Assembly (NCBI GenBank): GCA_039795775.1
Contig: JBDKLC010000005.1
Coordinates: 312,638-376,637 of the forward strand
Direction: 5' to 3'
Length of the DNA stretch: 64,000 bases
Origin: Candidatus Parcubacteria bacterium
GTDB lineage: Bacteria > Patescibacteriota > Minisyncoccia > Phycocordibacterales > CAIZLB01
This document shows positions 5,733 through 45,845 of this stretch, piece by piece; positions within the stretch are counted from its first letter, which is position 1; every line of letters begins with the position of its first letter. Made by a program: the position numbers and the translations under genes. The notes beneath the pieces are model-generated. The model saw only the letters and a program-made list of their open reading frames with translations. It made no database searches and was not told where the DNA came from.

Positions 5733-6798
5733 CGCCTATGCACTTCGAACCACTGTAGATAACTATAGATTGTCCTGGTGTAAGGGCCGTCTGCGGTTGA
5801 TCAAAAGAAACTGAATATTGTCCGCTGTTTCCTTTTGAAATACGACATGTTTGTTTTTGCTGTCTGTATCGCGATCGAGCTTCATATGATTTTGTAAGGT
5901 CTGGTTCAGTAATAGTCCAATTTACAGATGTAAGTTCAACTGTTTTTGGCATATAATCTCCTTTTTTAAAAATATCTTGTGGCACTACCGTAATTATGTT
6001 TTTTTCGAGGTCTTTTGCAACAATATAATGAGGTGTGTCATCTGGTCGAGTGATTGTCAGTCGGAAACCATGTCGTTCACCAATTGTATACAAGAGTGAA
6101 CCGTCATGTTCGCCTATGATTGCTCCATGTGCATCAAGTACGGCCCCCTTTTCTGTTTGTATATATTCCTTTAAGAACTCCTTCATATCTACATGCCCGA
6201 GGAAGCAGATTCCCTGACTGTCTTTTTTATCAAATACTGGCAACTTATATTTCTCAGCAAGTTTTCGAACCTCAGGCTTTAGCAAGTGACCAATTGGGAA
6301 CAATGTGTGTTTGAGGTCCTTCTGATTGAGGGTCCATAAGAAATAGCTTTGATCTTTGTTAGGATCTTTTCCTTCGTGCATTTCACTTGCTTCTAGCGTC
6401 ACTATATTTTGAGCATAGTGACCTGTAGCGATAAAATCCGCACCTTGTTTCAGTGCCTCATCAAGAAACGAGCCGAATTTAATCTGCCGATTACACATCA
6501 CATCTGGGTTAGGAGTTCGCCCAAGCTTGTATTCGTTGATCATATAGTCCACTACGTCTTTTTTGTATCGTTCTGCAAAATCAAACGTAAGAAATGTAAT
6601 ATCAAGAGCCGCTGCTACGCGCATTGCATCTCGTCGTTCATCTTTCCATGTGCATTCGCCATTTTCTGGCTGCCATACTTTTATAAAAACACCTGTCACA
6701 TCGTAGCCTGCCAATTTCAAAAGAAGTGCTGATACAGAAGAATCAACACCGCCAGACATACCAACAAATACTTTAGGTTTTTTTGAAATACTCTTCAT
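5716..6798 (-). CDS. mnmA: tRNA-specific 2-thiouridylase MnmA
   Basis: PP-loop SGGVDSS at the N-terminus, MnmA-length protein, conserved catalytic-Cys context. Confidence 0.9.
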   Translation of the reverse strand: MKSISKKPKVFVGMSGGVDSSVSALLLKLAGYDVTGVFIKVWQPENGECTWKDERRDAMRVAAALDITFLTFDFAERYKKDVVDYMINEYKLGRTPNPDVMCNRQIKFGSFLDEALKQGADFIATGHYAQNIVTLEASEMHEGKDPNKDQSYFLWTLNQKDLKHTLFPIGHLLKPEVRKLAEKYKLPVFDKKDSQGICFLGHVDMKEFLKEYIQTEKGAVLDAHGAIIGEHDGSLLYTIGERHGFRLTITRPDDTPHYIVAKDLEKNIITVVPQDIFKKGDYMPKTVELTSVNWTITEPDLTKSYEARSRYRQQKQTCRISKGNSGQYSVSFDQPQTALTPGQSIVIYSGSKCIGGGILS

Positions 6799-6828
6799 AG
6801 AAGATATGCCAGACTGAGCCTATGAAAT

Positions 6829-7821
6829 TTACTTTAGATACTTATTCTTAAGGCGTACATGCTCATCATGAGTCTTAGCAAAATGAGTTATACCATCTTT
6901 ATCCGAAAGAAAGAAGAGGTAGTCGTTTGGAATGGGGCGAAGTGCAGCCTCGATACTTTGAATTCCTGGATTTGAAATCGGTGTTGGAGGAAGACCTTTA
7001 TTTGTGTAGGTGTTATAAGGTGAATTCACTTTGAGGTCATTTAGTGTAAGTTGAGCCGATGTTTTTCCGTTTACATATGTAAATGTGCTATCTACCTGAA
7101 GCGGCATTCCAATTTCTATTCTTCGCCACAAAAGATCTGCAACCATTTTTCTGTCTTGTTCTGTTTGTACCTCACCTTCTAGGATTGAAGCCATAATAAT
7201 AATATCTTTCATACTATGCGATGAACTAGCAATTTCCTGCTCATACGGCTTCAATTGCTTTTTAAAAATACTGCCCATCATAGTAATAATCATTTCAGAC
7301 GATGCTTTGGGCGGAAAGAAATACGTATTTGGAAAGAGATATCCTTCTTTACCCTGTATTGATACTAAGAATGAATCTCGATCAATATCTGGGAACTTCT
7401 CATGGATAACGTCGGCTATCTTAAATACATTTGTACCTTCAGGAATTGTGACTTTTGTTGGAATATATCCATAATCACCATTCACCACACGTCGGGCAAT
7501 ACGAATGACATTCTGAGGTTTATTAAATTCATACATTCCTGCTGATATTTTGTGTTCACCACCGAGGAGAATAATTGCACTTCGAAGTACGATGCTAGAT
7601 TTCACAACCCCTCTGTCTCTCAGTTCATTAGCAATACTAGTAAGACTTTGTCCTGATTCGATTTGGACTGTTGTGCCGGCCACAAAGTTAAATGGAGCAG
7701 CAAATACAAATGTATAAATAATAGAAGCAAATGTAATGATGACGAACGTGAAAACACTAATGAACGCCACTAGTAAGAAACTTAAAGATTTTTTCTTTTT
7801 AGGGATATAGAGATCGTCCAT
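6829..7821 (-). CDS. mltG: Endolytic murein transglycosylase MltG/YceG family
   Basis: N-terminal TM helix and a YceG-like domain with the GLPPTPISNP motif. Start moved to the internal Met (MDDLY) to avoid overlap with the upstream gene. Confidence 0.8.
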   Translation of the reverse strand: MDDLYIPKKKKSLSFLLVAFISVFTFVIITFASIIYTFVFAAPFNFVAGTTVQIESGQSLTSIANELRDRGVVKSSIVLRSAIILLGGEHKISAGMYEFNKPQNVIRIARRVVNGDYGYIPTKVTIPEGTNVFKIADVIHEKFPDIDRDSFLVSIQGKEGYLFPNTYFFPPKASSEMIITMMGSIFKKQLKPYEQEIASSSHSMKDIIIMASILEGEVQTEQDRKMVADLLWRRIEIGMPLQVDSTFTYVNGKTSAQLTLNDLKVNSPYNTYTNKGLPPTPISNPGIQSIEAALRPIPNDYLFFLSDKDGITHFAKTHDEHVRLKNKYLK

Positions 7822-9163: not shown

Positions 9164-10207
9164 CTATTTAGTTTCGATGAGGTGATATTTTCCTTCTTTG
9201 TCTTTCTTGAAGAATTTTGTGTTCTGGAGATTGACGAGGATAGTGTTTTCTTTTACGTATCGTTCTTTGAGTACTTTTTCGATAATCTGCTCTTTTGTGA
9301 GTGGACCATTCTTTTCGAGTACTTTCTTGATAACGTCTTTTACGACACCACTGAGGTAACCCCATTCTGTGAGAGCGTATAATCCTCGGCCAACGAGTAC
9401 GAATCGTTTATCTTTGATAAGTTCGTTGTGAGTTGTAGCAATGTGAGCCTTTTTATTGAAAAGCTGGTTGATGAGCTTAGCAATGTCTCGGAAGTGAATT
9501 GGAGATCCGTGTTTTCGCATAGCGAGGAATGCGTAGTCTCGAATACCCTTTGTTCGGATATTTGGAGATACTGATTTACCCCATTCACCAAGAGGGTTCT
9601 TATCGATATGTTTTGAAATTCGGAGCCATCGCTTTGCGACTTCCTCATTCCGATACTTTTCGTTTACATCCTTGAGGTGTTCGAGGAAACTCTTAATCAT
9701 TTCTGATTCTGGTACGAGATCATCGTCATCGAGGCCTTTGTAGAGTTTTCGGAGCGCTTCGTGAATCTTTTTTGAGAGTTCTGTATCTACATGCCATCGG
9801 TGTTTGAATTCACCGTCTTCTTTTTCTTTCTTAAATACGTCACTTACCACGAGCATAAAGTGAATGTGGTTCTGAACTGATTTGTCCTTAGAAAGGTGGT
9901 TGAGGAGGTCGTCTTCTGCAAGTACGGCACCGAGGTCTCGGATTACTACTTCGAGTTCTTCAAAAGCGATTTTTTCACCCTTAAAATGAGCCGATTTCCG
10001 GATATTTGCAAGAGCTGCATTTTCGATCTGTCGTACTCGTTCTCGAGTGATATTATACAACTCACCAATGGCTTCAAGAGTCATTCGTTCGTTGTCTTTA
10101 TCAAGACCGTATCGTTTTGTTACTACAAGACGTGCTCGCTCAGGAAGTGCTGAAAGCAATTTCTTTGTAACATTCTTCGGTTTGTAGGTTAGTCCTATAG
10201 TTGCCAT
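9164..10207 (-). CDS. Sigma-70 region 4-like HTH protein with long C-terminal extension
   Basis: N-terminus resembles RpoD region 4 (LEAIGELYNITRERVRQIENAAL). No regions 1-3. The remaining ~270 aa are uncharacterised. Confidence 0.65.
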   Translation of the reverse strand: MATIGLTYKPKNVTKKLLSALPERARLVVTKRYGLDKDNERMTLEAIGELYNITRERVRQIENAALANIRKSAHFKGEKIAFEELEVVIRDLGAVLAEDDLLNHLSKDKSVQNHIHFMLVVSDVFKKEKEDGEFKHRWHVDTELSKKIHEALRKLYKGLDDDDLVPESEMIKSFLEHLKDVNEKYRNEEVAKRWLRISKHIDKNPLGEWGKSVSPNIRTKGIRDYAFLAMRKHGSPIHFRDIAKLINQLFNKKAHIATTHNELIKDKRFVLVGRGLYALTEWGYLSGVVKDVIKKVLEKNGPLTKEQIIEKVLKERYVKENTILVNLQNTKFFKKDKEGKYHLIETK

Positions 10208-10283: not shown

Positions 10284-13139
10284 TTACAATCCTGGGACTA
10301 CAATATTCACCAACTTTCCTTTAACGTAGATTACTCTAGCTGGTGTCTTATCCCCTATTCGTGCCTTAATCTTGTCCATTAATAGCACCATTGATTTTAC
10401 TTCTTCCTCATCATCTGTGTGACTTACAAATGTTTCTCGTACTTTGCCGTTAATTTGAACAACAATCTTCCATGTATCTGACTGAAGTTTCTTTGGATCA
10501 AATTCTTGCCATGGCATTGTGTGGATACTCTTCTTATTTCCAAGTTCTGCCCAAATTTCTTCTGTCACATGTGGAGCAATTGGAGCGAGGAGTTGGAGAA
10601 GCACTTCGTATTCGTTTCTGTAAACTGTTTCTTCTTTCTCGAGTGCGTTGAGCAAAATCATAAGAGATGAAACTGCTGTGTTGAATCCCATCGATTCTAT
10701 ATCATCTCCCACCTTCTTGATTGTCTGATTGATGATGAGTTCAAGATGCTTTCGCGAGCCATCTGTAGGTGCTTTTTTCTTTGTAACTACGTTTTCCTCA
10801 AGATTGTAAACTCGTTCGATGAATCGTCGTGAACCAATCATGTTTGAGGTGTTCCACGCGATAGCCTGATCGAATGGTCCCATGAACATTTCGTACACTC
10901 GGAGCGTATCAGCGCCATAGAGAGCAACGAGTTCGTCAGGACTTACCGTATTTCCCTTAGATTTAGACATTTTTTCTCCGCCTTCGGCCAAGATAAGTCC
11001 ATGAGATGTTCGTTTCTGATACGGTTCTTTTGTTGGAACCACACCAATGTCATACAAGAACTTGTGCCAGAATCGAGAATACAATAAGTGGAGCGTTGTG
11101 TGTTCCATTCCTCCATTGTACCAATCGATTGGTGTCCAATACTTAAGATTTTTTTCTGAAGCGAGTGCTTTTTTATTCTTTGAATCTGCATATCGGAGAT
11201 AGTACCAACTTGAACCAGCCCACTGGGGCATAGTGTCAGTTTCTCGTTTTGCAGGTCCCTTACATGTTGGACACTTTGTATTCACCCATTTTGTAAGCGT
11301 CGCAAGTGGAGACTCACCTGTATCAGTTGGAGCAAACTCTTTGATTGTAGGAAGCTTGAGCGGTAATTCTTTTTCAGGAAGAGCTACAATTCCGCACTTT
11401 TCACATGTTACGACTGGAATTGGTTCACCCCAGTATCGCTGCCGAGAGAAAATCCAATCTCGGAGTTTGTACTTTACTACCATCTTGCCACCAACTGCCT
11501 TTGTAATGTCTTTCTTTGCTTGTTCTGATGAAATACCATCAAACTTTTGTGAGTTAAAGAGTGTTCCTTCACCCAAGAATGGCTGCTTATCAATAAACTT
11601 CGCAAACCCATATACGTGAAGTATTTCTTTTACCTCTTTTCGAGCTCGATCTACCGGAAGCCACTCGAGAACAAATTTATTCTTTTCATTTTCTTCGAGG
11701 GCAGTCTCTTTTTGTGTCAGACTATTCAATCTAATATGAACAAATGTTGTTTTTGCTTCAAATGCTTTATTTTTTGAATGAGCAAAATATCGATACGTAA
11801 ATGTTTCCTCACTCACATCAACGATTTTTGCATCTGTATATCCTGTTTCTTCTGCAAGTTCTCGGATAGCTGTCACCTGTGGCAACTCACCCTGTTCAAC
11901 AGTACCTCCAACAAAAAGTCTTCCACCAAGCTCTGGTTTCCAGTTTATTGTGAGAATATTTCCCTTTCCGTCTTCTACAATAGCGACAATTTTGTTTTTG
12001 AGCTCAAATGACTTCACACCGGCCACGTCTGGTCGTTCATGAATAGGATTAAGTACTGGCTTGAAAGGAAGATTGTATTTGAGAGCAAAGACATGGTCTC
12101 GAGCATCGTGAGCAGGTACGGCCATAACTGCTCCAGTACCATATGAAGCCAATACATAGTCTGCAATCCAAACAGGAATTTCTTCTCCGTTTACTGGGTT
12201 GATAGCAACAACGCCTTTGAGTACGACACCAGTTTTTTCTTTTCCTTCTGCAGTTCGTTCGATTTCGGCTACGCCTTTGAGAGACTCAATATATTCTTCT
12301 ACTTCAGAATAATTTGAAATATTCTTTGAAAGTTTTTTAACAAGCTCGTGCTCAGGTGCAAGTACAACATATGTCACGCCAAACAACGTATCCGCTCGTG
12401 TCGTAAATACAGTGATTGTTTCTTCTGTACCTTTTATTTTAAATGAAAGTTCTGCCCCCTCGCTTCGTCCAATCCAGTTTCGTTGCTGAATTTTGATCTT
12501 TTCAAGGTAATCGACATCGTCGAGATCTTTGTCGAGTCGATCGGCATATTTTGTAATAGCGAGGATCCACTGATTCTTGTCTTTCTTAGTTACTTCAGTA
12601 CCACATCGTTCACATTTGCCATCAATAACTTCTTCGTTAGCAAGTACGGTCTTATCTTTTGGACACCAGTTTACATGTGTCATTTTCTTGAAAGCGAGAC
12701 CTTTCTTAAACATTTGCAAAAAGATCCACTGTGTCCACTTGTAGTATTCAGGGTCTGTAGTATTCACTTCTCGTGACCAATCAAAAGAAATACCGAGTGC
12801 CTTGAGCTGTCGTCTGAAGTTATCAGTGTTTGTTTTTGTTACTTTTGCAGGTTGAATGCCTGTCTTGATAGCGTAGTTTTCTGTAGGAAGGCCGAATGCA
12901 TCCCAACCAATTGGATACAACACGTTTTCACCTTGAGCTCGTCTCTTTCGGGCTACGGCATCCATAGCGGCATAACTTCGGATATGCCCAGTGTGAAGAC
13001 CCGCTCCAGATGGGAATGGGAATTCAATGAGGCCGTAAAACTTTTTAGCTTTACTTGTGTCAGAGGCTCGGTACATCTTTTTTGTTTCCCAAACCTTCTG
13101 CCATTTCTTCTCTATTTTCTTGTGGTCGTATTTGTTCAT
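10284..13139 (-). CDS. leuS: Leucyl-tRNA synthetase with an inserted NUDIX hydrolase domain
   Basis: HIGH motif (HTGHIRSY), KMSKS, editing-domain motifs (TTRADT, GTGAVMAVPAHD). A ~150-aa insertion carries a perfect Nudix box, GGTVEQGELPQVTAIRELAEETGY. Confidence 0.9.
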   Translation of the reverse strand: MNKYDHKKIEKKWQKVWETKKMYRASDTSKAKKFYGLIEFPFPSGAGLHTGHIRSYAAMDAVARKRRAQGENVLYPIGWDAFGLPTENYAIKTGIQPAKVTKTNTDNFRRQLKALGISFDWSREVNTTDPEYYKWTQWIFLQMFKKGLAFKKMTHVNWCPKDKTVLANEEVIDGKCERCGTEVTKKDKNQWILAITKYADRLDKDLDDVDYLEKIKIQQRNWIGRSEGAELSFKIKGTEETITVFTTRADTLFGVTYVVLAPEHELVKKLSKNISNYSEVEEYIESLKGVAEIERTAEGKEKTGVVLKGVVAINPVNGEEIPVWIADYVLASYGTGAVMAVPAHDARDHVFALKYNLPFKPVLNPIHERPDVAGVKSFELKNKIVAIVEDGKGNILTINWKPELGGRLFVGGTVEQGELPQVTAIRELAEETGYTDAKIVDVSEETFTYRYFAHSKNKAFEAKTTFVHIRLNSLTQKETALEENEKNKFVLEWLPVDRARKEVKEILHVYGFAKFIDKQPFLGEGTLFNSQKFDGISSEQAKKDITKAVGGKMVVKYKLRDWIFSRQRYWGEPIPVVTCEKCGIVALPEKELPLKLPTIKEFAPTDTGESPLATLTKWVNTKCPTCKGPAKRETDTMPQWAGSSWYYLRYADSKNKKALASEKNLKYWTPIDWYNGGMEHTTLHLLYSRFWHKFLYDIGVVPTKEPYQKRTSHGLILAEGGEKMSKSKGNTVSPDELVALYGADTLRVYEMFMGPFDQAIAWNTSNMIGSRRFIERVYNLEENVVTKKKAPTDGSRKHLELIINQTIKKVGDDIESMGFNTAVSSLMILLNALEKEETVYRNEYEVLLQLLAPIAPHVTEEIWAELGNKKSIHTMPWQEFDPKKLQSDTWKIVVQINGKVRETFVSHTDDEEEVKSMVLLMDKIKARIGDKTPARVIYVKGKLVNIVVPGL

Positions 13140-13145
13140 AAATAA

Positions 13146-14222
13146 TTAGTTTGATGGATAGGGCTTTCTTTTTGTTTTTCTTCCTGCTTTTCTGAAGGCA
13201 CCTTTACCATATGTTGCCTCAATAATTCGAGCTAGTTCCAGAACTCTACCGCTAAAATAAGATTTAGTGAAGAGTCTAAATACATCTCCGGGACTATTAA
13301 ATCTATCTTTATTTTTTTCGTATAATTCCTTGTTCGCTTTTTCCAGTTCACGTCTTTCTTTTTTATACGCTCCACCCTCACGTGTATACACTTCCGCACC
13401 CGAACCAACTTGCTCACCGATGACATTATCTACCACAATTACTGGAGCACCCGCCTGGGTAGAAAATTCAGTTTGGCGTGCTTCGAGTTCTTTTTTGCGT
13501 TCAACAATGTCTTCTTCTAAACCTTTTATTGAAGTGCTTTTTACTCTCATGAACCGCAATGCCAACTCTTCTACAACAGCCTCATTTACATCAGTAAAAT
13601 AAGATTGTAACTGTTTGCCTCCACCACCATCTTCCTCATTCACCATAAACTCAAGACCAATTCTTCGGTCACCGAGTTTGATCTTATTTTTTTCAGCATC
13701 TTTGCCAACTACATGTTTACTTGCAAATCCAAATCCGTGAATGAGTTCGTGCGCTAGTACATGTGCAAATTCTATTTTACTAGTTCTTTTGATGAAATTA
13801 TTATCAATAGCAATATATTGTCCGCCGGCATCCCATATAGCGGGAGTATGTTTAAATCGTTTTCGAATGACCTCCTTTCTTTCTTCAGGATATGATGAAT
13901 TCTCAGCATCAATTATATGAATCTGCTCAGGCTTGAATTGAATTGGATGTTCGGGACCATATTCTTTCAAAAAGTCTGGCAACATATTACATACATCGAC
14001 AATAATCTCGAGTTGTTCCATCGTTTTCATGATTTCACACCCATAAAATGGTTGATGTTCGAAATCACGAGCATACCGAGCAATGACTTGCTCCTCACTT
14101 ACTGGCGCATCTTTAGGGATACCGACAACTCTTTTGATTGCCGTATTGTGATGAACCTGTTCTTGAGGTTCTACAGATACTTCAGGCTCAATTGGATTAG
14201 GAATGGGCGCACCCTCTTTCAT
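13146..14222 (-). CDS. Hypothetical protein with HEXXH zinc-metallopeptidase-like motif
   Basis: AHVLAHELIHGFGF motif with acidic residues downstream, which could make it a gluzincin. No other family signal. Confidence 0.5.
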   Translation of the reverse strand: MKEGAPIPNPIEPEVSVEPQEQVHHNTAIKRVVGIPKDAPVSEEQVIARYARDFEHQPFYGCEIMKTMEQLEIIVDVCNMLPDFLKEYGPEHPIQFKPEQIHIIDAENSSYPEERKEVIRKRFKHTPAIWDAGGQYIAIDNNFIKRTSKIEFAHVLAHELIHGFGFASKHVVGKDAEKNKIKLGDRRIGLEFMVNEEDGGGGKQLQSYFTDVNEAVVEELALRFMRVKSTSIKGLEEDIVERKKELEARQTEFSTQAGAPVIVVDNVIGEQVGSGAEVYTREGGAYKKERRELEKANKELYEKNKDRFNSPGDVFRLFTKSYFSGRVLELARIIEATYGKGAFRKAGRKTKRKPYPSN

Positions 14223-44513: not shown

Positions 44514-45845
44514 TTATTCGCGATCTTTCTTGTACAACTGCAAAAATGCAGTTTTGAATTCATCAAACTTTCCTGGACCTTCTACAAGCGCAGCTCGCAT
44601 GTTTTTTACGAGGTTGATAGTGAAATATAAGTTGTGAATTGTGGCCAATGTACCACCAAGCATTTCTTTTGCACGGAAAAGATGTGCGAGATACGCACGT
44701 GTGTAATGGGTACATGTATAACAACCGCATCCTTCCTCTGGCGCAGTGAAGTCATCGCCATATTTTGCATTGGTCATGTTGAGCTTACCGATTTTTGTGA
44801 GAAGCGTTCCGTTGCGAGCATTTCGTGTTGGCATCACACAATCAAAGAGGTCACAGCCGTTTTCTACAGCACCAAACAAATCTTCTGGTTCACCGATACC
44901 GAGTAAGTGTCGCGGTTTATCTTCAGGCAAAATTGAATTCACCCATGACACCGCCGTGATCATGTCTTCTTTTGCAAATGACCCACCAATACCGAAACCG
45001 TCGAATGAGTGAGTTGCGACAACTTCTTTCATTTCTTTTGAGCCGTCGGCTTGCACCACTTCTTGCATAGACTTCACATCGACAGTCATATCAGCGAGAA
45101 TTTGTGCTGATTCTTTGCGCAGTTCTTCGTGACGACCGCCTTGTACGATACCAAAGAGGGCTTGTTTTGAAGCTTGCTCTGCATTGTCTTTATGAAATTG
45201 CAGACTTCGTTTTGCCCAACGATGTGTACGATCGAGCGCTTCGCGTTGATAATTGAACGGCTCGTTGGGTGACGTACATTCATCAAATGCAAAAATCATA
45301 TCTGCACCAATGTTGTGTTGAATTTCGATCGACTTTTCAGGAGTGAAATAATGCACAGAGCCATCGATGATAGATTTGAACATCACACCGTTGGCATCAA
45401 TCTTTGCTGCGTGCATTGCAGGATTTTCTTCACCGTGAAGACTCTTTGCTTGTGGCAACTCAAGAGGGTCAGTTCCCGACTTTGTGAGCTTCGAAATATT
45501 TTTGCCGTAGGCCGCCCCAAGAGAAAACGCTTGGAATCCACCTGAGTCGGTCATTGTTGGTCCATGCCAATTCATGAATTTGTGCAGACCTCCAGCTTTC
45601 TTGATGACATCGTCACCTGGTTGGAGATAGAGATGGTATGTATTGGCAAGACACACCTGCGCACCGAGCGTGGCAAGCATTTCAGGAGTGATGGCTTTGA
45701 TGGTTGCTTTTGTACCCACAGACACAAAGGCCGGTGTAAGAATCGTACCGTGTGGTGTCACAAGTTCCCCTGCCCGCCCGAGCTTTTGCTCTCCGGCCGC
45801 CGTGGTCAGCTTGTGTGTGATAGTAAATTTGAGGGGTGATGACAT
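44514..45845 (-). CDS. tgt: Queuine tRNA-ribosyltransferase
   Basis: TDSGGFQ catalytic motif and a CxCxxC...H zinc site (CGCYTCTHY). Longer than typical Tgt. Confidence 0.9.
   Translation of the reverse strand: MSSPLKFTITHKLTTAAGEQKLGRAGELVTPHGTILTPAFVSVGTKATIKAITPEMLATLGAQVCLANTYHLYLQPGDDVIKKAGGLHKFMNWHGPTMTDSGGFQAFSLGAAYGKNISKLTKSGTDPLELPQAKSLHGEENPAMHAAKIDANGVMFKSIIDGSVHYFTPEKSIEIQHNIGADMIFAFDECTSPNEPFNYQREALDRTHRWAKRSLQFHKDNAEQASKQALFGIVQGGRHEELRKESAQILADMTVDVKSMQEVVQADGSKEMKEVVATHSFDGFGIGGSFAKEDMITAVSWVNSILPEDKPRHLLGIGEPEDLFGAVENGCDLFDCVMPTRNARNGTLLTKIGKLNMTNAKYGDDFTAPEEGCGCYTCTHYTRAYLAHLFRAKEMLGGTLATIHNLYFTINLVKNMRAALVEGPGKFDEFKTAFLQLYKKDRE

Follow-up and report, generated by a model that had tools for sequence, protein, structure and literature searches.

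A Nudix hydrolase domain nested within the editing domain of a leucyl-tRNA synthetase from Candidatus Parcubacteria

When an aminoacyl-tRNA synthetase has an additional catalytic domain, this is mostly seen as a eukaryotic feature. Two NCBIfam models are precedents. NF040702 (isoleucine--tRNA ligase, N-acetyltransferase domain-containing) describes a class I synthetase combined with an enzyme domain of unrelated type; NF003787 (bifunctional nicotinamide-nucleotide adenylyltransferase/Nudix hydroxylase, in NCBIfam's wording) describes a Nudix domain fused to an adenylyl-transfer enzyme. Each has another partner and position than in the case reported here. This case is a bacterial-type leucyl-tRNA synthetase (LeuRS) with a Nudix domain inside its CP1 editing domain. 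It is encoded by leuS in a 64,000-nt stretch of DNA, hereafter the window, from a Candidatus Parcubacteria bacterium (GCA_039795775.1, contig JBDKLC010000005.1, forward-strand positions 312,638-376,637). Both precedents appeared as weak NCBIfam matches of the window LeuRS, and NCBIfam, which holds an exception model for IleRS+GNAT, has none for LeuRS+Nudix. An earlier reading of this DNA (the original prediction) knew of no characterised fusion of this kind, and likewise full-text literature searches returned no paper on a LeuRS-Nudix fusion. The combination is visible in the precomputed Pfam annotations of many database entries, but it has neither a name nor a curated model, and the NCBI label for these proteins goes no further than 'class I tRNA ligase family protein'.

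The nearest described relatives of the synthetase itself are the bacterial LeuRS of Thermus thermophilus (1H3N, 2BTE) and Escherichia coli (4AQ7). Homology extends over the full length (E 2.6e-217), and the domain order and the HIGH, KMSKS and CP1 motifs are alike. The window LeuRS differs from that of T. thermophilus in having a 159-residue Nudix domain where the Thermus enzyme has a 16-residue CP1 loop, and from both in being without the ~57-residue leucine-specific domain ahead of KMSKS. The features of the gene are as follows, where residue numbers refer to the 951-aa window LeuRS (Q) and Tth denotes the T. thermophilus enzyme.

10284..13139, minus strand: leuS, bacterial-type leucyl-tRNA synthetase, 951 aa, one uninterrupted open reading frame (ORF)
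12984..12995, minus strand: HIGH-type signature HTGH, residues 49-52; H49, G51 and H52 invariant in 114 homologs
12048..12482, minus strand: CP1 editing domain, N-terminal three quarters, residues 220-364 (PF13603 positions 1-150 of 185)
12387..12404, minus strand: TTRADT, residues 246-251, CP1 threonine-rich motif
12096..12140, minus strand: GTGAVMAVPAHDARD, residues 334-348, CP1 editing motif, includes AHDARD
11571..12047, minus strand: inserted Nudix module, residues 365-523 (159 aa), replacing the 16-residue loop Tth 364-379
11634..11990, minus strand: Pfam NUDIX match PF00293, residues 384-502 (E 2e-13, 50.9 bits, whole protein)
11838..11906, minus strand: Nudix box, translated as GTVEQGELPQVTAIRELAEETGY, G412-x5-E418-x7-R426-E427-L-A-E430-E431-T-G433-Y434
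11661..11774, minus strand: family-conserved residues outside the box, K456 (11772..11774), E485 (11685..11687) and W493 (11661..11663)
11496..11570, minus strand: CP1 editing domain, C-terminal remainder, residues 524-548; G525 invariant
10959..10973, minus strand: KMSKS loop, residues 723-727, invariant in 114 homologs; local sequence EGGEKMSKS

A canonical synthetase with a nested module

The host protein has the hallmarks of an ordinary LeuRS. With the TIGR00396 model (leuS_bact; cut-off 548.4) the whole protein scores 999.1 bits, the match being divided in two by the insert, and Pfam finds the usual class I and anticodon-binding domains in addition to the PF13603 editing domain (219.8 bits). 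Among the 114 homologs the editing residues T246, T247, R248, D250, T251, H344, D345, R347 and D348 are invariant. An AlphaFold2 (AF2) model of the whole protein, built from family alignments, reached a pLDDT of 90.8 and a pTM of 0.81, and compared with E. coli LeuRS 4AQ7 it gave template-modelling (TM) scores of 0.77 normalised to the query and 0.85 normalised to the target. The LeuRS body of the model superposes on E. coli LeuRS-tRNA complexes. The window gene thus appears to be a functional LeuRS of the housekeeping type, in keeping with the prediction of a 951-aa LeuS with canonical motifs, TTRADT included.

The alignment to T. thermophilus LeuRS (1H3N) pairs Q1-364 with Tth 1-363, Q524-718 with Tth 380-579, and Q723-950 with Tth 637-878, and thereby delimits the insertion to residues 365-523. 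The original prediction had placed it at residues ~365-520 (11582-12047); the start at 12047 was exact, whereas the end fell about four codons short of the true span. It had also put the extra segment after the editing domain and ahead of the return to the catalytic core, which is not where it lies. The PF13603 match is broken by the insert at about position 150 of 185, isolated CP1 crystal constructs run 45-55 residues beyond the insertion point, and deletion of residues 365-523 in silico restores a single continuous PF13603 match over positions 1-183 of 185. Because of this, the Nudix module is placed within the CP1 editing domain, which in turn lies within the Rossmann fold. In the AF2 model the Nudix domain is bounded by one β-strand at each end (363-368 and 525-527).

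The identity of the module is clear from several sides. The excised insert matches PF00293 at 55.5 bits (E 7.9e-15; gathering cut-off 21.1), in the profile scan that the original prediction had suggested as a check. Its box GTVEQGELPQVTAIRELAEETGY is an exact fit to the pattern G-x5-E-x7-R-E-U-x-E-E-x-G-U, with Y in the last hydrophobic position, so the earlier description of a textbook Nudix box was accurate. A six-frame translation of the window contains no second such box, and none arose in 200 amino-acid shuffles of that translation. The AF2 model of the insert (pLDDT 94.9) is a textbook Nudix α/β/α sandwich, with Foldseek TM values of up to 0.80-0.81 when normalised to target length.

Across 112 aligned inserts G412, E427 and E430 are conserved in 100%, E431 and G433 in 99%, and E418 and R426 in at least 80%. 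Two further residues beyond the box, K456 and E485, show no variation, and a third, W493, is conserved in 99%. The mean identity to the query insert is only 29%, compared with 67% for the LeuRS body. As the key residues are near-invariant at such low overall identity, the inserted Nudix domain is probably catalytic, and its catalytic residues are, judging from this alignment, under strong purifying selection. The Nudix glutamates E427, E430 and E431, which had been noted as intact in the window, are thus invariant or nearly so in the family too. No variation is seen in the residues for synthesis and editing in LeuRS either, so both enzymes appear to be maintained.

At the site of the missing leucine-specific domain, Q718-723 stands in place of Tth 580-636, and window positions 10959..10990 (residues ~718-727) read ILAEGGEKMSKS. 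This domain is important for aminoacylation in E. coli. It is present in the E. coli and Thermus enzymes but is not universal in bacterial LeuRS, and it is missing in all 121 clade members examined (the window LeuRS and 120 relatives).

Distribution, replacement and relatives of the module

Of the 120 LeuRS homologs that match best (55-71% identity, best local alignment), about 110 have PF00293 in the corresponding position. The insert is missing from nine close relatives among the 120, and one homolog (P0073; labels of this type denote related proteins) has a degenerate box. A single-sequence scan found seven species-representative genomes that encode a complete LeuRS with Nudix in one frame, so that the survey of related genomes proposed with the original prediction returned the same insertion widely. 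When 1.84 billion cluster representatives were searched exhaustively with a profile, 192 proteins scored E<1e-30 and 703 scored E<1e-10. The homologs come from sources named Paceibacterota, Parcubacteria, Minisyncoccia, Taylorbacteria and 'Patescibacteria group'. On these database matches, LeuRS-Nudix is a clade-wide feature of Patescibacteria, spread over hundreds of uncultured members, and is not peculiar to this genome.

The same data bear on whether the fusion is genuine. The locus of P0002, the closest relative, has the gene order of the window, namely YchF, FKBP, DUF5671, an unannotated ORF of 358/372 aa, LeuS, sigma70_r4, DUF8128, YceG and MnmA. An assembly chimera, which the original prediction had itself raised as a danger, is ruled out by the ~110 of 120 homologs, the seven reference genomes with one continuous frame and this syntenic ortholog. 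The insert junctions read LN|PIHERP and QPFLG|EGT. The intein signature (Cys/Ser/Thr at the N-junction, His-Asn plus Cys/Ser/Thr at the C-junction) is not present there, and an intein, which would have a Hint fold, is ruled out by the junction sequences together with the Nudix fold. A search of the insert borders for DNA repeats returned nothing beyond short matches expected by chance, none of them inverted, and thus gives no hint of a transposon-like origin. The GC content of the insert (11571..12047) is 0.37-0.40, slightly under that of most of the flanking leuS (about 0.39-0.44), which fits either weaker constraint on the module or a foreign origin.

The module has a history of its own. Between the window LeuRS and P0002 the body is ~80% identical, while identity drops to ~30% between residues ~361 and ~540, and the identity of the two inserts is below that of all seven neighbouring genes compared (42-91%). 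The inserts closest to that of the window (57-60% identity) belong to LeuRS whose bodies share only 59-65% identity with its own. Bootstrapped neighbour-joining trees were built separately for body and insert. In the body tree Q groups with P0002 at 100% bootstrap; in the insert tree Q groups with P0008, P0106 and P0010 at 100%, and the Q+P0002 grouping receives 0%. Since the two phylogenies conflict, the Nudix module has been replaced at least once, in at least one close relative by one from another lineage of the same Nudix family. More broadly, insert types barely follow body similarity: on average, bodies whose inserts fall in one cluster are 0.687 identical, and those from different clusters 0.676.

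Some LeuRS have this Nudix domain in tandem, or in two or three copies (e.g. P0122, P0123 and P0132), and a second insertion site exists at the junction just ahead of CP1, around Q207-235, which is the sole Nudix site in P0181 and P0230. Multi-copy or alternative-site arrangements are also represented by P0124 and P0130. Further hydrolase domains occupy other surface loops in LeuRS of the same clade (P0087, P0094, P0137, P0158, P0214, P0264). Among them are a HAD phosphatase, a serine α/β-hydrolase, which lies either ahead of CP1 or downstream of the zinc knuckle near Q583, and a Ham1/ITPase domain, which precedes either CP1 or the anticodon-binding domain. The Ham1, HAD and Nudix families are known for clearing unwanted nucleotides.

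Members of the family also exist outside LeuRS. True free-standing homologs of ~160 aa, which have termini of their own and lie on contigs as long as 640 kb, occur in Patescibacteria and related metagenome-assembled genomes (MAGs). They belong to the same family as the insert (P0149, P0183, P0252 and P0302; profile E about 1e-35 to 1e-50), and most retain the family residues K456, R460, E485 and W493 and the N-terminal extension. Unlike the nested insert they stand alone; JGI names them automatically as '8-oxo-dGTP pyrophosphatase MutT (NUDIX family)', and none has been studied.

A further set of free-standing proteins of ~280 aa (P0204, P0210, P0228 and others) consists of a shortened bacterial-type CP1 with a nested Nudix domain. 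Many of these have lost TTRxDT and the editing Asp and have kept the Nudix box. One is encoded at 6001-6864 of the related locus L009 (CP066684.1, a closed 874,869-bp archaeal (DPANN) genome labelled Ca. Aenigmatarchaeota), adjoining topA and with fibrillarin nearby. In another related locus, L012 (4906-8838, a long-read MAG contig), leuS, mnmA and the sigma70_r4 gene are each split into several short ORFs, and the LeuRS also carries a HAD insert. Because leuS is broken there, some database CP1+Nudix proteins (e.g. P0314) are frameshift artefacts. The short CP1+Nudix proteins were therefore not accepted as a uniform class of free-standing editing factors, as at least one is such an artefact, though others are real.

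Substrate class and competing explanations

Assignment of the module to an established Nudix subfamily was attempted and failed. Against the NudB, YtkD, MutT and RppH models the insert scores at best 19-27 bits, with cut-offs of 98-154. The MutT 8-oxo-dGTPase cut-offs are not reached (TIGR00586, 19.1 against 97.9 bits; NF008044, 24.2 against 148), nor are the RppH equivalog cut-offs (116-259), with at most 23.3 bits for the insert and at most 42 bits for the free-standing homologs. The marker of ADP-ribose pyrophosphatases is a Pro 16 residues past the Nudix box, and that of the NADH pyrophosphatase NudC is SQPWPFPxS past the box (PMC6856373). The window has R450 at the former position and the family alignment has no conserved Pro, while SQPWPFPxS is absent from the insert sequence. 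MutT, NudB, YtkD, RppH, NudE, ADPRase and NudC were all rejected, with scores far under the cut-offs or markers absent.

Weak resemblances agree with one another. The best PDB profile match of the insert is lupin Ap4A hydrolase, and among the NCBIfam models that the free-standing homologs match weakly, those for RppH are the most frequent. Identity is 14-24% to lupin Ap4A hydrolase 1F3Y, Aquifex 3I7U, T. thermophilus Ndx1, Mycobacterium tuberculosis Rv2985, flax-rust AvrM14, E. coli RppH and the uncharacterised Enterococcus faecalis 2AZW, all of which are free-standing Nudix hydrolases, whereas the window domain is nested in a domain of another enzyme. A tyrosine downstream of the Nudix box marks ApnA hydrolases in the signature of the Bessman group (PMC6856373, no position stated). 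Y449, Y451 and F452 of the insert lie at +15, +17 and +18 past the box, and most family members have an aromatic residue at position 451; many Nudix enzymes are aromatic in this region. Dunn et al. in 1999 reportedly placed the marker tyrosine about 15-18 residues past the box. Overall, weak similarity in sequence and fold makes ApnA hydrolases, RppH and decapping enzymes the nearest relatives of the insert, although no match comes anywhere near a family cut-off. Most likely the module actively hydrolyses the pyrophosphate of a polyphosphate-linked nucleotide, with ApnA/Np4N, capped or 5'-polyphosphorylated RNA, and aberrant NTPs as candidate substrates.

The explanation we favour, with moderate confidence, is that a complete Nudix pyrophosphohydrolase has been inserted into a CP1 surface loop and has an autonomous activity tethered to LeuRS. 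The module would fold by itself and cleave a free substrate of the nucleotide-pyrophosphate type, most likely a polyphosphate-linked one such as dinucleoside polyphosphates (e.g. Ap4A), Np4-capped or 5'-polyphosphorylated RNA ends, or non-canonical NTPs. LeuRS would keep its normal aminoacylation and editing and would serve mainly as a constitutively expressed scaffold or tether, with no part in the Nudix chemistry. Autonomy is preferred because the module can be swapped and also occurs free-standing, and because sister LeuRS contain further enzymes that clean up nucleotides; swapping and free-standing homologs argue that the Nudix domain is not tightly integrated with LeuRS chemistry. Several observations weigh against this explanation. 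Nearly all multi-domain proteins among the best 150 profile matches are LeuRS, the module in LeuRS is always in or adjoining CP1, and some free-standing versions retain a CP1 remnant. This near-exclusive association with LeuRS and CP1 argues for a specific LeuRS link, which a pure scaffold model leaves unexplained. The window insert also departs from its family at R381K, G413T and R460F, positions that are at least 93% conserved (position 460 is R in 93% of the family), a subtype shared with P0008, P0010 and P0106. Given these three deviations its specificity may differ or its activity be reduced. Finally, no NCBIfam subfamily cut-off is approached, the best match being 27 bits against a cut-off of 103.

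The association with LeuRS and CP1 keeps alive the alternative that the Nudix domain is mechanistically coupled to its host. It would then destroy Ap4A/ApnA formed from Leu-AMP and ATP, or a misactivated adenylate, or act on the CP1-bound acceptor end of tRNA-Leu, at a 5'-polyphosphate or cap. This includes the local Ap4A hydrolysis suggested in the original prediction, with which the relatives among ApnA hydrolases, RppH and decapping enzymes would be compatible. The placement in CP1 or its hinge, sometimes in two or three copies, and the CP1-remnant+Nudix proteins, one of them in the closed 875-kb genome, fit coupling, as may the aromatic residues 15-18 positions past the box, with the reservation that many Nudix enzymes are aromatic there. 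The exchange of inserts between LeuRS lineages, leaving 20-30% identity in close orthologs, would be unexpected for a co-adapted interface. Nine close relatives manage entirely without the insert, true free-standing family members exist, and unrelated hydrolases (Ham1, HAD, α/β) occupy other LeuRS loops. LeuRS is not known to be among the strong Ap4A producers, which also counts against coupling. Taken together coupling is rather unlikely. A more elaborate proposal, which we regard as doubtful, makes the Nudix domain a previously unrecognised accessory activity of LeuRS proofreading in Patescibacteria that works with CP1, either clearing Np4A or adenylated by-products or trimming and decapping the 5' end of CP1-held tRNA-Leu. 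Duplication and cassette-like replacement would then reflect a diversifying pressure, such as conflict with phages or with hosts, or shifting substrate pools, and LeuRS would be a hub that recruits Nudix, Ham1, HAD and α/β hydrolases.

If the Nudix fold were instead non-catalytic, it might act as a nucleotide-sensing regulator or as an extra tRNA- or protein-binding surface, perhaps offsetting the missing leucine-specific domain. The lack of that domain in the window LeuRS and the loss of the family-conserved R460 in the window subtype are compatible with such a role. The triad E427/E430/E431 is nevertheless kept in 111 of 112 inserts despite ~29% identity, and the single degenerate copy in P0073 shows what decay looks like. 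The leucine-specific domain is equally missing with and without the Nudix insert, therefore the Nudix domain is not its replacement, and compensation of this kind was rejected. A non-catalytic role is accordingly improbable. Least credible of all is an artefact or selfish element, whether a chimera, a frameshift fusion or an intein-like mobile insertion without cell function. This would draw on the slightly low GC content of the insert, the clear movement of the module between genes and the database CP1+Nudix proteins of which at least one stems from a frameshifted long-read assembly. It is opposed by the reading frame, which is continuous here, in all seven of the reference genomes and in over 100 independent assemblies, by the syntenic ortholog, by the lack of flanking repeats and of an intein signature at the junctions, and by the purifying selection that the fold and its catalytic residues appear to be under, and we consider it very improbable.

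Neighbouring genes and biological meaning

Directly upstream of leuS, a 358-aa ORF (13146..14222, minus strand) has no Pfam match and contains the motif HELIH (HExxH). It is 42% identical to its syntenic ortholog in the related locus L008 and is the fastest-evolving neighbour. Downstream of leuS (9164..10207, minus strand) lies a gene for a 347-aa protein with sigma-70 region 4 and HARE-HTH, which is 91% identical to its L008 ortholog and is the best-conserved gene of the neighbourhood. Further along the window, queuine tRNA-ribosyltransferase Tgt (44514..45845, minus strand, 443 aa) matches PF01702 in two stretches and appears to have ~50 extra residues in its N-terminal part, so that a second tRNA enzyme may carry an inserted domain or loop.

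What is new here is a canonical LeuRS with an undescribed nested enzymatic domain, which may prove to be an ordinary cleaning enzyme that uses LeuRS as a carrier. The insert defines an unstudied Nudix family. It also explains the generic name that NCBI gives to these proteins and points to an annotation fix. In biological terms, a major group of ultra-small bacteria places a second, apparently active enzyme in the editing domain of an essential synthetase, and keeps, multiplies and swaps this domain. Should its activity be linked to LeuRS, quality control or nucleotide signalling would be coupled to translation in a novel way. Should it be autonomous, it would be a clear natural case of domain-in-domain-in-domain engineering and would show how reduced genomes package enzymes that clean the nucleotide pool.

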